A stretch of DNA of 41,916 nt from a virus. The position numbers and the translations under genes were made by a program. Every line of letters begins with the position of its first letter. Within the stretch, counting starts at the first letter, position 1. Below, piece after piece: positions 4,722-14,092 of this stretch. Below the pieces are notes generated by a model that was not told the DNA's origin, did not search any database, and was given only the letters and a program-made list of their open reading frames with translations. The DNA lies in UHGV virus genome UHGV-0326656. The stretch is one strand, 5' to 3'.

Positions 4722-4749
4722 TGGTGGAGCTGGCGGGAGTTGAACCCGC
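4722..4749 (-). other. ssrA: 28-nt 3' end of tmRNA (ssrA) ending CCA; att-core-like relic
   Basis: Minus strand reads GCGGGTTCAACTCCCGCCAGCTCCACCA, identical to the ssrA 3' terminus as remembered; upstream sequence does not continue ssrA. Confidence 0.7.
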
Positions 4750-5945: not shown

Positions 5946-6500
5946 ATGCGTGCGCGCGAGATACAATTTCTCGCGCATTGTGTAACCGGCGACAAAACCC
6001 TGTTATCATTATAGCGACCCGTTTAGATGGGCCATTTGTGCCCCAACAGCTTCTGGGTATAGATTTCCTCGGCCCTGTATAGATACTTTGCTAAAGAGTA
6101 TTTTAATGGTATTTTGCTTACGTACCATTCTTCTAACGAATGTCTGCCTTATCCTGTGAGCTGCCTTCGCTCAGCATTGGCCTGTTTCTCGTTGATTTAT
6201 ATACTGCGACACTAACATAGGCGGATATGTCCGCTCCTCGCTCATAACAGACATTCACTACAGTTATGGCAGAAAGGTATGCATGCTGGGTGGGGAAAGT
6301 ATGAAGGAAAAGAAAACTGCTGCGCTGTTTGTCGTCACGTTTATCTTCATTGGCTATGCAAGTCATAATACAAGGTGGGACAAAACTGAGACACATAAGG
6401 CCTCACAATGGCTTGCAAGGCTTTACATGTTTTGATGTGGTGGGACGTGTGAGCGCAGTGTTGATGGGGTAATGCTTTGAATTAGAAGCGGATTCTTATA

Positions 6501-9824: not shown

Positions 9825-10649
9825 TCAGGCGGTGAAAGTACCAATAAAGGTTTCTACTTTGCTGTCTTTGAATTTCTCAACAAGCAGATCACGAAATTCG
9901 TTAGCCATATCTTCCTGCACTGCTTCCAGCTGAATAATGCGCAGAACCAGTACAGGACGATCGCCAGTGATAATGCTGAGGCGTAATTTAAACGGACGTT
10001 CTTTCAGACCTTCAAACGGAACGCATTTAAATTCAAATGCCACTGGCATAATGTCTTTGGTCTTCGCTTCGACAGATTCCATCAGGGAGCGTTTGCCGCT
10101 GAAGTCATTATCTTCAAAATCAGCGGTCTGGTTTGCTTCAATCGTGATTTTACGGATTGCCGCAGCCGCTTTTGTTGCCTGAATGGCGTCACCATTAGCA
10201 TCAAAGCCCACAAGGTAGTCGGCCCAGTCTTCAATCCATTCTGCCAGTGACTTCTGGGAGTTACGCTCGCCGTTAACAGACAACAGAGCAGAGAACGGTG
10301 CTGTCTTTTTCAGTTTGAGTGTGGCGGTGTTATCTGCGTGACCTGGTTCATCAATAGTACCCAGGTTAAGCACACTGACGGCACGCATATTATCAGCATC
10401 GATAAAGCAGCGGGTGCCTTCATCTGCAAGATCTTTAGAATAACGGGTAAAGTCATCGATGCTGGCAGTGGAAAGCGCACCACGGAAACGGAAGCGATTT
10501 AAATTAAATTTTTCCAGATCATGAATGCGGAAATTCTCAGGCAATGCCACAGCATCGGCACCAATCTTACTGATAATTTCATTAACACCCTGAGCAGAAA
10601 TAAGGGCATGGATTTGATTAATTGCGGTTGCGTCTAAGTTCTGAGACAT
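9825..10649 (-). CDS. DUF2303 (YfdQ-like) phage protein
   Basis: 274-aa ORF; length and gene neighbourhood (next to the HD protein) match the CPS-53 yfdQ-yfdR pair as remembered. Confidence 0.55.
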
Positions 10650-10714: not shown

Positions 10715-11077
10715 TTAACGACCTGCTGCGCGGAGTTTTCCGTCAGGTTCACCGGCAAGAGTCAGCAACTGTCCCTGGTCTTCCTGCAGAATAGTCAGGC
10801 GACCACCGCGATTGACATACATCGGCGTTTCGGTGGTGTCTTCTTCGGAAATTTTCCCGCGGTTAGTCGGGCGAACATATGAGAGTTTGTGTTTGATTTT
10901 CACTCGGTTCTCATCAAACGGTTCGATTTCCAGGTTGAGCGAGACCTTACCTTTGGTTTTCGTGTTCATCACACCGGAAGCGACTTCACTGAGAACTGCG
11001 CCGATTTTGGTTTCAAATACGCCGCCGTCCAGCTCCCCGATAAATGCCTGCACATCAGTACTGCGTTCGCTAGCCAT
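10715..11077 (-). CDS. hypothetical phage protein, 120 aa
   Basis: Start at MASERSTDVQ... with GAGGAG 7 nt upstream; the 100-codon upstream extension in the ORF track is GC-rich, Arg/Cys-rich and looks non-coding. Confidence 0.6.
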   Translation of the reverse strand: MASERSTDVQAFIGELDGGVFETKIGAVLSEVASGVMNTKTKGKVSLNLEIEPFDENRVKIKHKLSYVRPTNRGKISEEDTTETPMYVNRGGRLTILQEDQGQLLTLAGEPDGKLRAAGR

Positions 11078-11545
11078 TTTGCTGCTCCTCATCATATCGA
11101 CCCTGCAAGGTCGGTTAGTTTCTCCACAAAACAGAGAAGAACACCTGCGGTGGCTGCCGCCCGGATGGATTGGGTTATGAGCCCGTCGTCCGGTGATGCT
11201 CTTCTCTGTTTTGTAAAAAGGACGGTACCAGCCGGAAGCAAGGGTACAAGCTGGTACCGCCAAGACTACACACAGCATAAAGTTGTGGTGCCGGGTGCCT
11301 CCCGGTGCCTGGCGAAGGTTGCACACCAGGCGGGTGGGTATCCACAGAAGGTCGACTGTCAGCCTCAACCTTAACCCGCGTGCGCTGAGCCGCATTCACC
11401 ACAACGCTAAGGATTCTCTCTGGTTGAAAATACTTAGCTGTTATGTGCCTGCTTTTAGCCACATCAGGCGAGGTGGACCTAGTTATTCCCCAACAACAAG
11501 GATTCGGTTAATCTGGTTATCCCCAACAACGCAAAAGGAAAAGAA

Positions 11546-11980
11546 ATGTCCGGTAATATCTATACGCTGTACAAATCCCACTGTGAAAATGTTGGAAAGT
11601 ATCGGGGCATTGAAATCAGTGGGGTAGTGTCATCAGTCGAAATAAGCAAAGTTGAATCAAGGGCAACATTACTTACTCTTCTGGACCTTGTCTTACATGA
11701 GCACCGGAAGAAATTCGGCACTCCCTATAATCAGTTGAATGGGAAAAAGGCTCTGGTTCACCTTATTCTGATGAAGCATCACTGGATGCCAAAACAGATT
11801 AATGAGATGAAATTTGATGAACTTCTTCTTTCAATTCAGGATGAACTCACACTTGATAAAATAAGCGTAACCGCCCAGAAATTTTTAGATTATCGAGACT
11901 GGAGATCACAAATTCATCACTTTGATGATTTTGACGAAAATGAATGGGATCCTAATTTGTCTGCACAATATCTAAAGTAA
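11546..11980 (+). CDS. hypothetical protein, 144 aa, AT-rich moron in the immunity region
   Basis: AAGGA ribosome-binding site; oriented against the leftward early operon; preceded by two TTATYCCCCAACAAC direct repeats. Confidence 0.55.
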   Translation: MSGNIYTLYKSHCENVGKYRGIEISGVVSSVEISKVESRATLLTLLDLVLHEHRKKFGTPYNQLNGKKALVHLILMKHHWMPKQINEMKFDELLLSIQDELTLDKISVTAQKFLDYRDWRSQIHHFDDFDENEWDPNLSAQYLK

Positions 11981-12195: not shown

Positions 12196-12236
12196 GGACC
12201 AGATTGTTAAAGAGCTAAGCGTCCTGTAGGGCGCTT
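12196..12236 (-). promoter_or_regulatory. boxA-like element (GCTCTTTAACAA) with adjacent hairpin; candidate nut-like site; same hairpin plus T-run reads as a + strand terminator
   Basis: Minus strand: hairpin AGCGCCC-TACA-GGACGCT, then TAG, then CTCTTTAACAA, which matches the remembered rrn boxA TGCTCTTTAACAA at 12 of 13. Confidence 0.4.
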
Positions 12237-12406: not shown

Positions 12407-12443
12407 TTGCGAGATATGCAAGTTATATTTGCGAGATATGCAA
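12407..12443. promoter_or_regulatory. oL-like operator pair, two copies of TTGCGAGATATGCAA 22 bp apart
   Basis: Identical 15-mers at 12407-12421 and 12429-12443; same TTGCG-N5-GCAA pattern as 13211-13225 beside cI; reverse complement gives TTGCAT -35-like hexamers for a leftward promoter. Confidence 0.55.
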
Positions 12444-12497: not shown

Positions 12498-13190
12498 TTA
12501 ATTATGTCTCTTAAGGGTTTGCGACTGACTGATTAAGACCTTTCCAAAGACCATGAATCGGTGTTCGTTTTCGCTAGTAATTCCCCATTCACGGTAAATC
12601 TGGTTATCAGAAATCACCAGCAGTTTGTCAGGAATCATTTGAAGTCTTTTAACGTATATTTTGTCATCAAAACCAAAGACATATATACCATCACCATCAA
12701 ACTGATTGATGCTGACATCAACGAAGATGAGATCTCCTGGCTCAATGGTTGGACACATACTGTCCCCACGAACGTTGATAACTTTGATGTGATTGGCTGG
12801 TCGTCCGCCGAACATTGATACAGCATTATCAGTTCTGTATTCGATGGCATGAATCACATCAATGACATCACCGCCCTGGATAAGGCCATTTCCCGCACTG
12901 GCACTGATATCCAGCATTTCAATACGGAACACATCCTTCACCTGCGCAACATCCTCATTGTTACTGTTTTTATATACAGTATTACTTTTGTGGGCAGAGG
13001 TAAAGAGATCAGCAATATCAACACCTAAGCTCTTGGCAATATTACTCAGTGTTTGTTCGGTAAATTGTTTTTGCTTACCCGTTTCTAAGCGCGAGATGTT
13101 CGCCGCATCTACTCCTATCGCTTCAGCGAGATCGGCGATTTTCATGTTCTTCGCTTGGCGAAGTTGTCTGACTCGGTTTCCTATGTTCAT
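12498..13190 (-). CDS. cI: CI-type repressor (N-terminal HTH, C-terminal S24 LexA-like peptidase domain)
   Basis: N-terminal HTH (VRQLRQAKNMKIADLAEAIGVDAANISRLETGK) and C-terminal ...INVRGDSMCPTIEPGDLIFVD...KIYVKRL with Ser/Lys dyad; divergent from cro. Confidence 0.9.
   Translation of the reverse strand: MNIGNRVRQLRQAKNMKIADLAEAIGVDAANISRLETGKQKQFTEQTLSNIAKSLGVDIADLFTSAHKSNTVYKNSNNEDVAQVKDVFRIEMLDISASAGNGLIQGGDVIDVIHAIEYRTDNAVSMFGGRPANHIKVINVRGDSMCPTIEPGDLIFVDVSINQFDGDGIYVFGFDDKIYVKRLQMIPDKLLVISDNQIYREWGITSENEHRFMVFGKVLISQSQTLKRHN
12962..12981. promoter_or_regulatory. near-consensus LexA (SOS) box inside the cI coding sequence
   Basis: TACTGTTTTTATATACAGTA = CTGT-N8-ACAG with AT-rich spacer, about 18 of 20 to the consensus TACTGTATATATATACAGTA; falls in the cI interdomain linker. 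Confidence 0.5.
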
Positions 13191-13210: not shown

Positions 13211-13225
13211 TTGCGTGATAAGCAA
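13211..13225. promoter_or_regulatory. oR-like operator in the cI-cro intergenic region
   Basis: TTGCGTGATAAGCAA differs from the two 12407-12443 copies at two positions; further ATTGCG/CGCAAT repeats follow up to the cro start. Confidence 0.5.
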
Positions 13226-13287: not shown

Positions 13288-13548
13288 ATGCAATCACCAT
13301 TACGAAATGTGCGTAAGGCGCATGGTTTCACTTTGCAGCATGTTGCTGCGGGTGTTCAAGTCAATCCAGCGACGTTGAGTCGTATTGAGAGGCTGGAGCA
13401 GATTCCATCTATCGAGCTTGCAGAACGTTTAGCCAATTTTTTTAAGGGTGAAGTCAGCGAAATGCAGATTCTTTATCCGGCACGTTTTCAATCTAGCCAA
13501 AACCAGAATGGGTTTAAACCACAGGAACAGGAGGTGAACCGTGGGTAA
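13288..13548 (+). CDS. cro: Cro-like HTH regulator
   Basis: 86 aa, HTH (FTLQHVAAGVQVNPATLSRIER), GGAGG ribosome-binding site, divergent from cI. Confidence 0.8.
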   Translation: MQSPLRNVRKAHGFTLQHVAAGVQVNPATLSRIERLEQIPSIELAERLANFFKGEVSEMQILYPARFQSSQNQNGFKPQEQEVNRG

Positions 13549-14092
13549 GCATCACTGGAAAGTAGAAAAACAGCCTGAGTGGTACGTGAAAGCTGTCAGA
13601 AAAACTATCGCAGCGTTGCCGGGGGGGTACGCTGAAGCTGCTGACTGGCTGGATGTAACAGAGAACGCATTATTTAACCGCCTTCGTGCCGATGGCGATC
13701 AGATTTTCCCGCTGGGATGGGCAATGATTTTGCAACGTGCTGGTGGAACTCACTTCATTGCTGACGCTGTGGCGCAGTCTGCAAATGGCGTCTTTGTGTC
13801 TCTTCCTGATGTCGAGGATGTGGACAACGCCGATATCAACCAACGCCTGCTGGAGGTCATTGAACAGATCGGCAGTTATTCAAAACAGATTCGTTCAGCA
13901 ATTGAAGACGGTGTAGTGGAACCGCATGAGAAGACAGCAATTAACGACGAGCTGTACCTCTCAATTTCGAAGCTGCAGGAGCATGCAGCACTGGTCTACA
14001 AAATTTTTTGCATTTCAGAAAGTAATGACGCCCGCGAGTGTGCAGCTCCGGGCGCCGTGGCGTGTCGTGACTGTGGAGAAACTAACGCATGA
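13541..14092 (+). CDS. phage regulatory protein, CII-like (CP76-type) (tentative)
   Basis: 183 aa, GTG start with AGGAGG ribosome-binding site, in the position of cII; family assignment from memory only. Confidence 0.45.

Follow-up and report, generated by a model that had tools for sequence, protein, structure and literature searches.

A minus-strand RNA locus with an STnc100-type core and a KilS-type tail in the early-left region of a lambdoid Escherichia coli prophage

The virus genome UHGV-0326656, a stretch of 41,916 nucleotides whose full length is called the window here, is a lambdoid Escherichia coli prophage of the SfV/SfIV/ST64B type. The block at 11100-11545 of the window was found to be a non-coding RNA locus on the minus strand that consists of three parts: a structured core of the STnc100 family, a tail that is an orthologue of KilS, a small RNA (sRNA) of the Rac prophage of E. 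coli K-12, and a leader. The block is real and conserved, and for the most part it represents a novel version of elements already known; no new RNA class is involved. According to the best explanation, for which a probability of about 60% was estimated, this locus would encode a composite Hfq-type sRNA with an STnc100-type 5' domain and a KilS-type seed and terminator, and the terminator would also gate the early-left genes.

An earlier note on this DNA had described the block as GC-rich and highly structured, and both properties were confirmed. The G+C content was 54-57.5% over 11000-11500 versus 34-49% in both flanks. The minus strand at 11205-11445 folded with -100.9 kcal/mol (z = -5.5), a value equalled by none of 200 shuffled sequences, and at 11070-11222 it folded with -62.4 kcal/mol (z = -5.8). 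All of the features that had been described were present in the sequence, but several of the positions given for them were incorrect, some by 7-10 nt. The statement that there was no credible open reading frame (ORF) held with one caveat, namely an open 226-aa ORF at 10715-11395 on the minus strand. Among the options offered in the note, that of a structured RNA was correct: the RNA lies on the minus strand, is conserved across genera and has covarying helices. The statement that it matched no known RNA class was overturned by a sub-threshold match to STnc100 and by the similarity of its 3' part to KilS.

The STnc100-type core and its pseudoknot

At gathering thresholds, an Rfam search of the whole window gave nothing. 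When the covariance-model search that had been proposed was repeated permissively, a full-length alignment to STnc100 (RF02076, model positions 1-206 of 206) was obtained on the minus strand at 11212-11435, with 43.4 bits and an E value of 4.7e-8. Weak matches to ftsZ-DE and to the Hairpin ribozyme in the same scan were discarded as noise.

The structured core occupies 11282-11405 on the minus strand, as supported by Rfam STnc100, by a covariance model built here from 32 diverse cores (R1) and by covariation. It comprises helix P1 (11397-11405 with 11282-11290), P2 (11377-11394), a variable P3 region (11332-11365), P4 (11307-11331, with its loop at 11315-11323) and P5 (CCGGG-AGGCA-CCCGG, 11291-11305), all on the minus strand. 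R1 matched the window as a single copy with 81.9 bits over 11277-11409. The invariant 22-mer CACCGGGAGGCACCCGGCACCA of the P5/P1 segment, which is common to canonical STnc100 copies, has an exact match in the window. With this 22-mer, 120 viral contig stretches were recovered; they contained 110 distinct elements, which fell into 36 clusters at 80% identity.

Conservation and covariation, which the earlier note had also proposed to check, were both found in relatives of the window, with elements conserved across genera. In a 70-sequence alignment, which was fitted to R1 itself and is thus biased toward the structure, 94.4% of cells were paired, compared with 39-55% in slid controls and 78.4% in shuffled alignments (none of 500 reached the observed value), and changes on both sides were found in 19 of the 25 core pairs. 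The P5 stem covaries (CCGGG/CCCGG, CCUGG/CCAGG, GGUGG/CCACC), while its loop AGGCA is constant. In P2, three C-G pairs are flipped to G-C in the subgroup to which the window belongs (UGCGGC-UCAGC-GC(A)CGCG versus UCCCCC-UGUGC-GG(A)GGGG). This subgroup is also set apart by its scores: canonical copies reached 100-161 bits with Rfam STnc100, whereas the syntenic relatives of the window (phiES15, SfV, ST64B, the locus L083, Klebsiella phage Kp4884-1 and the Qin prophage) reached 34-41 bits. The core of the window is a divergent, sub-threshold, early-left subgroup member of the STnc100 family.

The core contains a well-supported pseudoknot. Its 5' strand, AAGGUUG (11366-11372, minus strand), lies in the segment joining P2 and P3, and its 3' strand, CAACCUU (11315-11321, minus strand), lies within the P4 loop. 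In almost every member of the family, the segment following P2 was complementary to the P4 loop although the sequences varied, and at least 10 different pairings were observed; these included AAGGCUG / CAGCCUU in phiES15 and AUCAGC / GCUGAU, CCAGUC / GACUGG, CUGGUG / CACCGG and AGACUGACA / UGUCAGUCU in other members. Because the register shifts between members, column-wise counting was unusable, and the pseudoknot was assessed by per-sequence duplex energies with mismatched partners as controls. The mean energy was -8.85 kcal/mol for matched partners and -4.72 kcal/mol for mismatched ones (Mann-Whitney p = 2.6e-25, a value inflated by relatedness). This pairing is absent from the Rfam consensus structure line in the cmscan output.

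Two hairpins precede the core on its 5' side, GCUAAG...CUUAGC at 11406-11438 and GCCUG...CAGGC at 11447-11469 on the minus strand, as determined by folding and by comparison of upstream sequences. This pair was retained in SfV and Kp4884-1, and the two hairpins probably belong to the transcript.

The KilS-type tail, the terminator and the leader

The tail (11215-11277) is formed by the 60 nt past P1 (UAUGCUGUGUGUAGUCUUGGCGGUACCAGC...GCUGGUACCGUCCUUUUU). It starts with the single-stranded motif UGCUGUGUGUAGUC (11264-11277, minus strand), the presumed seed, which is identical to the motif of K-12 KilS. The same motif was found unchanged in SfV, phiES15, Kp4866-6 and Flotzy and with one change in ST64B, although phiES15, Flotzy and ST64B carry unrelated terminators. 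The motif together with the homologous hairpin makes up the 3' 60 nt of KilS (b4833), and the hairpins align end to end. Judged by this similarity, the tail is an orthologue of KilS.

The motif is followed by an intrinsic terminator on the minus strand, GGCGGUACCAGC...GCUGGUACCGUCC, with its hairpin at 11220-11262 and its U tract at 11215-11219, so that the 3' end of the RNA is predicted at about 11215-11217. The second stem described in the earlier note exists, but it has 10 bp rather than 9 (CGGTACCAGC / GCTGGTACCG, 11223-11232 / 11250-11259). A hairpin of 10-13 bp followed by UUUUU, as in other STnc100 elements, ends approximately 66 nt past P1 in the window, and a hairpin with a U tract was located within 150 nt of the core in 82 of 103 distinct family members. 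The suggestion of tL terminators or processing sites was correct as far as one good intrinsic terminator is concerned; a role of the long hairpin as a processing site is a matter of analogy, as described below.

KilS was found by Hfq RIL-seq, verified by Northern blotting and assigned a start of its own, with yncL as a target (PMC8175672). The predicted duplex of the seed with yncL had an energy of -18.8 kcal/mol, compared with -11.5 +/- 2.1 kcal/mol for shuffled seeds (1 of 500 as good), and that of the window tail with the yncL 5' untranslated region (UTR) had a predicted energy of -21.2 kcal/mol. Two sites for the KilS motif were predicted in yncL, one in the 5' UTR (approximately -38 to -28, GUACUAUACAC) and one directly past the stop codon. 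KilS starts independently, approximately 35 nt upstream of its seed; in the window, it is the core that stands immediately before the seed, and a promoter-like site was not found there.

The terminator hairpin of the tail is also a distant relative of DicF. Rfam DicF (RF00039) scored 19.4 bits in the window (E 0.13), below the gathering score of 48, while the true DicF in Qin scored 76.7 bits.

Between the terminator and the yfdP-like gene lies a Y-shaped leader hairpin (11126-11214, minus strand). The 15-bp inverted repeat reported in the earlier note corresponds to the lower stem (approximately 19-24 bp) of this hairpin. The repeat is indeed perfect, with arms ACAAAACAGAGAAGA at 11126-11140 and TCTTCTCTGTTTTGT at 11200-11214; the second arm is not at 11207-11221, and the loop has 59 nt instead of 66. 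When mismatches are allowed, each arm grows to 25 nt, with 84% complementarity (11126-11150 / 11190-11214). The apical arm CGACGGGCUCAUAACCCAAUCCAUCC is nearly invariant in sequence, and the second arm is variable. A consensus structure from five phages of four genera (Escherichia, Salmonella, Klebsiella and Citrobacter) contained 39 pairs, and compensatory changes were seen in 6 of these. The leader stem is a plausible RNase III substrate, judging by the dicBF operon and the leader of lambda N as analogues.

The leader is followed on the minus strand by a small hairpin (11098-11113) and by the Shine-Dalgarno sequence GAGGAG (11085-11090) and ATG (11075-11077) of the yfdP-like gene (10715-11077). 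The real start of this gene is the ATG at 11077. Homology to K-12 yfdP begins approximately 20 nt upstream of this ATG. In the K-12 prophage CPS-53 (L133 5200-5640), the RNA block and everything to its right have been lost, and CPS-53 was therefore ruled out as an experimental proxy.

Distribution and interpretation

This exact region was present in 2782 of 5426 complete E. coli genomes. SfV, SfIV, ST64B, phiES15, L083 and Kp4884-1 also have a core in this slot, flanked by the repressor gene and by the first early-left gene; in phiES15, it lies ahead of kil and gam. Weaker R1 matches (22.6-31.3 bits) in the same slot were obtained for mEp460, Flotzy and Kp4866-6. In the loci L015, L053 and L063, the core stands first in a small moron operon located between the genes for terminase and portal.

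Two cores that are unannotated were found in K-12. That of Qin (NC_000913.3 1649450-1649586, L132 2951-3087; 65.6 bits with R1) lies between the dicF terminator and the dicB start, and that of Rac (NC_000913.3 1418257-1418394, L135 8758-8895; 60.3 bits) lies between KilS and kilR. In each case, approximately 20 nt separate the end of the core from the Shine-Dalgarno sequence of the toxic gene that follows, dicB or kilR. The order of modules is sRNA, core and kil gene in K-12, and core, sRNA, leader and yfdP-like gene in the window. DicF is released from the pL-like dicBF operon of Qin by termination together with cuts made by RNase III as well as by RNase E (bioRxiv 10.1101/2023.04.14.536235). 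In Rac, the Rho-dependent terminator trac sits inside racR, away from the core (PMC4150792).

A genome pattern scan combined with R1 revealed cores across the Enterobacterales: in Escherichia, Shigella, Salmonella, Citrobacter, Enterobacter, Klebsiella, Raoultella, Kosakonia, Trabulsiella, Pantoea, Erwinia, Rahnella, Serratia and others. Pattern matches in G+C-rich Actinomycetota (among the scanned loci L137-L236) were rejected as chance because R1 found no core in those loci. Cores of 90-94 bits also occurred in assemblies labelled Mucilaginibacter, Vagococcus and Prolixibacteraceae (L208, L232 and L157, the last a 388-nt scaffold); these are probably enterobacterial DNA contamination. Head-to-tail arrays of up to 6 cores were found, some 2-14 nt apart and without an intervening terminator, and other cores were interleaved with same-strand tRNA genes (L217 6395-7022, L188 944-1993, L236 3737-5465, L172 3110-4649). 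A tRNA gene was located within 1.5 kb of 56 of 222 distinct cores, on the same strand in all 56 cases. STnc100 is usually found in the late region of lambdoid prophages, near Q, tRNA genes or stx, and canonical copies were seen past three tRNA genes or downstream of stx2B; the window copy, by comparison, lies between cI and the first early-left gene. Canonical copies are transcribed in strain EDL933, and Northern blotting has detected one of them (PMC5331693). Overlap with the Hfq-bound sRNA EcOnc27 is seen for the copy downstream of stx2B (PMC12711010, PMC4104026).

The composite sRNA may be pictured as follows, with expression, transcript ends, Hfq dependence, targets and processing being assumed by analogy with KilS, DicF and canonical STnc100. 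Transcripts would originate from an operator-controlled pL (predicted start at approximately 12386) or from a promoter in 11440-11545 that the searches missed. Most of them would end at the terminator (at approximately 11216) and release an sRNA of approximately 190 nt that spans P1 through the U tract (from 11405 to about 11216), or one of approximately 225-255 nt if both upstream hairpins were included. The 5' two-thirds of this product would be the pseudoknotted, multi-helix STnc100/PasD core, and the 3' third would be a DicF-related, KilS-type Hfq-sRNA module with the single-stranded seed UGCUGUGUGUAGUC, the terminator hairpin and a U tail. The seed would pair with host mRNAs with the help of Hfq, and RNase E may trim off a short KilS-like form. 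The same terminator would limit entry into the yfdP-like, DUF2303 and xis-int genes, and the read-through RNA would carry the Y-shaped hairpin as the leader of the next gene and a likely RNase III site. This explanation draws on the homology, structure, covariation, terminator and synteny of the locus and on the identity of its seed with that of KilS, all of which were observed directly; any role of the core beyond that of a stable 5' domain would be an addition to it.

Several findings weigh against this explanation. The STnc100 score of 43.4 bits falls short of the gathering score of 47. No promoter for this copy of the RNA was found on either strand, including the 110-bp spacer to the neighbouring moron; a promoter tool and a position-weight scan of our own, applied to both strands of 11380-11620, gave no convincing sigma-70 promoter, the best candidate being close to the median of random 240-bp windows. 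The pairing of the seed with yncL is a prediction from computation alone. In Qin and Rac, the core is located past the sRNA terminator and directly before the dicB or kilR ribosome-binding site. In Pantoea, cores adjoin head to tail and lack intervening terminators, and a core match in Citrobacter braakii stops at 4747, with tRNA-Met beginning at 4749. The core is also far more elaborate than a base-pairing sRNA requires, and its loops are invariant. Taken together, the elaborate core, its position before dicB and kilR, the terminator-free multimers and the tRNA neighbours suggest that the core has a function of its own.

It is possible, with a probability clearly lower than that of the composite sRNA, that the core is an independent pseudoknotted module with a tRNA-like topology and its own function, which has spread through Enterobacterales prophages and is present as single copies in early-left operons (the dicF-dicB and kilS-kilR spacers of K-12 among them), between tRNA genes and in head-to-tail arrays. 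Such a module may act as a tRNA mimic or decoy, as a protein sponge, as RNase P/E punctuation or in cis control of toxic kil genes.

An unlikely alternative is that the core is chiefly a cis-acting leader element and that the 'sRNA' is a by-product of termination. The core might then control terminator read-through as a riboswitch or attenuator, promote processive antitermination like put of phage HK022, or affect the stability or translation of the downstream mRNA. The succession of core, short linker, terminator and same-strand genes is reminiscent of an aptamer followed by its expression platform, in 61 of 81 cases the next ORF of at least 100 aa has the same orientation as the core, and in Qin and Rac no terminator separates the core from the Shine-Dalgarno sequence of dicB or kilR. 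Moreover, an N-like protein was not seen in these phages, and their pL leader has a boxA of the rrn type. However, no pairing of the core with the terminator in the manner of an antiterminator was found that is consistent across members, and the terminators are unrelated between subgroups; a resemblance to such pairing was seen in one cluster (terminator GCCCCUCUCCGGAGGGGC with P2) and not in others, and this candidate was dropped. R1 found no match in the genome of HK022, where putL and putR are located. Many of the canonical copies belong to Q-antiterminated late operons, in which transcription would run past a terminator switch, and neither head-to-tail multimers nor neighbours in tRNA arrays fit a leader function.

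Slightly less likely still is an autonomous tRNA-like module that is co-transcribed and then processed like a tRNA, for instance by RNase P or RNase E, its fusion to the KilS-like part being incidental, and that either captures a protein of the host or phage as a decoy or sponge or serves as punctuation that frees neighbouring RNAs. The helix order (P1, 3 nt, P2, an expanded middle and the 5-bp P5 running straight into the 3' strand of P1), the invariant loops and the covarying stems are compatible with this, as are the same-strand tRNA genes near the cores, the closely spaced arrays and the swapped order of the core and the KilS/DicF module between the window type and Rac/Qin. On the other hand, this likeness is a reading of topology, neither a partner protein nor a cleavage site is known, and ARAGORN found neither a tRNA nor a tmRNA in the window, nor did the permissive Rfam scan return a tRNA match.

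That the region encodes an N-terminal extension of the yfdP-like protein or is a recombination scar is highly improbable in either case, and both explanations are contradicted by covariation and synteny. The 226-aa ORF that crosses the block is uninterrupted in the window, and in phage SfIV it carries the annotation gp34, but the extension is absent from ST64B (sb37, 123 aa), Klebsiella phage Kp4866-6, mEp460 and K-12 yfdP, its translation is Arg/Cys-rich, substitutions among relatives preserve base pairs and not codons, and a good Shine-Dalgarno sequence stands ahead of the ATG at 11077. The earlier note's option of a scar from moron insertion, with chance hairpins, would agree with the mosaicism of the region, which has homology breakpoints near 11263, 11476 and 11530, and with the presence of different morons at the same junction; it is countered by the folding z-scores, by the conservation of each module with compensatory changes in phages of Escherichia, Salmonella, Klebsiella, Citrobacter and Cronobacter, and by the occurrence of the same elements in phages with other morons or, as in ST64B, with no moron at this place.

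Surroundings, related RNAs and significance

To the right of the RNA, a spacer separates it from the divergent moron at 11546-11980. The two direct repeats reported in the earlier note, GTTAT(T)CCCCAACAAC, exist in this spacer at 11483-11498 (GTTATTCCCCAACAAC) and 11516-11530 (GTTATCCCCAACAAC); the position 11474-11486 given for the first copy was incorrect. The possibility that they are relics of truncated cores was rejected, as R1 with its filters off found nothing there. The spacer at 11438-11530 was 86% conserved in Kp4884-1, beside a different moron. The moron of the window (plus strand) encodes 144 aa and belongs to no Pfam or PADLOC family. Unrelated morons occupy the same slot just past the 11438-11530 spacer in PhiR29_1 and Kp4884-1 and also this slot in mEp460, which shares with the window only 11080-11263. 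This position, on the right-hand side of the RNA block, seems to be a point of moron exchange.

Pfam identified cI (12498-13190, minus strand), a CII-like gene (13541-14092) and DUF2303 (yfdQ-like, 9825-10649), and the ORF at 13288-13548 was called cro by analogy of position. For the moron product, the 68-aa ORF described below and the yfdP-like protein, nothing was found in Pfam and PADLOC. Two copies of the leftward operator TTGCGAGATATGCAA (OL, 12407-12443) match the OR copy TTGCGTGATAAGCAA at 13211-13225 and overlap a promoter of the pL type (TTGCAT, 17 nt, TATCTT), whose start is predicted at approximately 12386. In the pL leader, a hairpin (12217-12236) is directly followed by AGCTCTTTAACAA, an rrn-type boxA with a 12/13 match (12216-12204, minus strand); it is the only near-perfect copy in the window, the match at 6088-6100 having two mismatches. 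The 68-aa ORF past boxA (12158-11955) has no arginine-rich motif. This boxA in the absence of an N protein hints at Nus-factor antitermination, as judged from sequence. The predicted pL transcript would pass through the hairpin and boxA, the 68-aa ORF, the moron in antisense orientation and then the RNA block. Rightward of the immunity region, isrK and the C4 antisense RNA were observed in ST64B and mEp460 (L001 6732-6920, L003 5673-5861); neither was detected in the window at Rfam gathering thresholds.

Among known systems, STnc100, which overlaps EcOnc27/sRNA103 of E. coli O157, shares with the window its P1/P2/P4/P5 architecture and the segment CACCGGGAGGCACCCGGCACCA; both also end in an intrinsic terminator at the 3' side and reside in prophages. 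It differs in the score and in P2, as described above, and in the linker and the seed; moreover, the window copy is early-left beside the repressor gene, while canonical copies are in the late region downstream of Q, tRNA genes or stx. PasD1 and PasD2 of enteropathogenic E. coli E2348/69 share structure and ancestry with STnc100 (Zhu, Shabalina and Storz, bioRxiv 10.64898/2026.05.13.724894). Because of this reported ancestry, PasD, likened here by description only, may be placed in the same superfamily as the core of the window, from which it differs in adjoining Q and lpxR.

KilS aligns with the window over its 3' 60 nt, through the seed and the terminator hairpin, and likewise lies in a repressor-proximal leftward operon beyond an opposite-strand moron (sieB in Rac). 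Unlike the window RNA, KilS has a distinct 5' part of 35 nt, in place of which the window has the STnc100-type core. In Rac, the core follows KilS and precedes kilR, whereas in the window it comes before the KilS-like part, with a yfdP-like gene as the next one. DicF of Qin shares the operon position and the start of the hairpin, UUGGCGGUAYCAGYUU, and is followed by a core in Qin; it differs in its seed and in its ftsZ-pairing loop, which is not conserved in the window, and its model gave only the low score mentioned above.

The put element of HK022 consists of approximately 70 nt with two stem-loops. It resembles the RNA of the window by position only, as a structured RNA past the early promoter of an N-less lambdoid phage and ahead of terminators. 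It differs in that the window has a single copy with no rightward counterpart, and R1 matched nothing in the entire HK022 genome at E values up to 1. ROOL and GOLLD are RNAs of prophages that are associated with tRNA genes and have ornate conserved folds; their function is not known. Both of these traits recur in the core. However, ROOL and GOLLD are much larger (approximately 500-800 nt) and come from other phyla, and Rfam gave no match to them in the window.

Genome records leave the region blank or annotate spurious proteins over it, although about half of the complete E. coli genomes carry it. Probable mis-annotations over the RNA region were observed for SfIV gp34 and gp35, mEp460 gp36 and PhiR29_1 XSB42132 (L002 3636-4548, L003 3071-3214, L126 2755-3483). 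With a rebuilt covariance model, the early-left subgroup could be annotated. The pseudoknot together with the invariant loops, the definition of the subgroup and the K-12 copies are what this analysis adds to the family. Since the K-12 copies are located before dicB and kilR, in an organism with easy genetics, a role of the core in the expression of toxic division inhibitors and in sRNA biogenesis is directly testable. The family is among the most abundant 'sRNA' families in enterobacterial genomes (PMC9029176), and if the core has an activity of its own, this would explain that rank.

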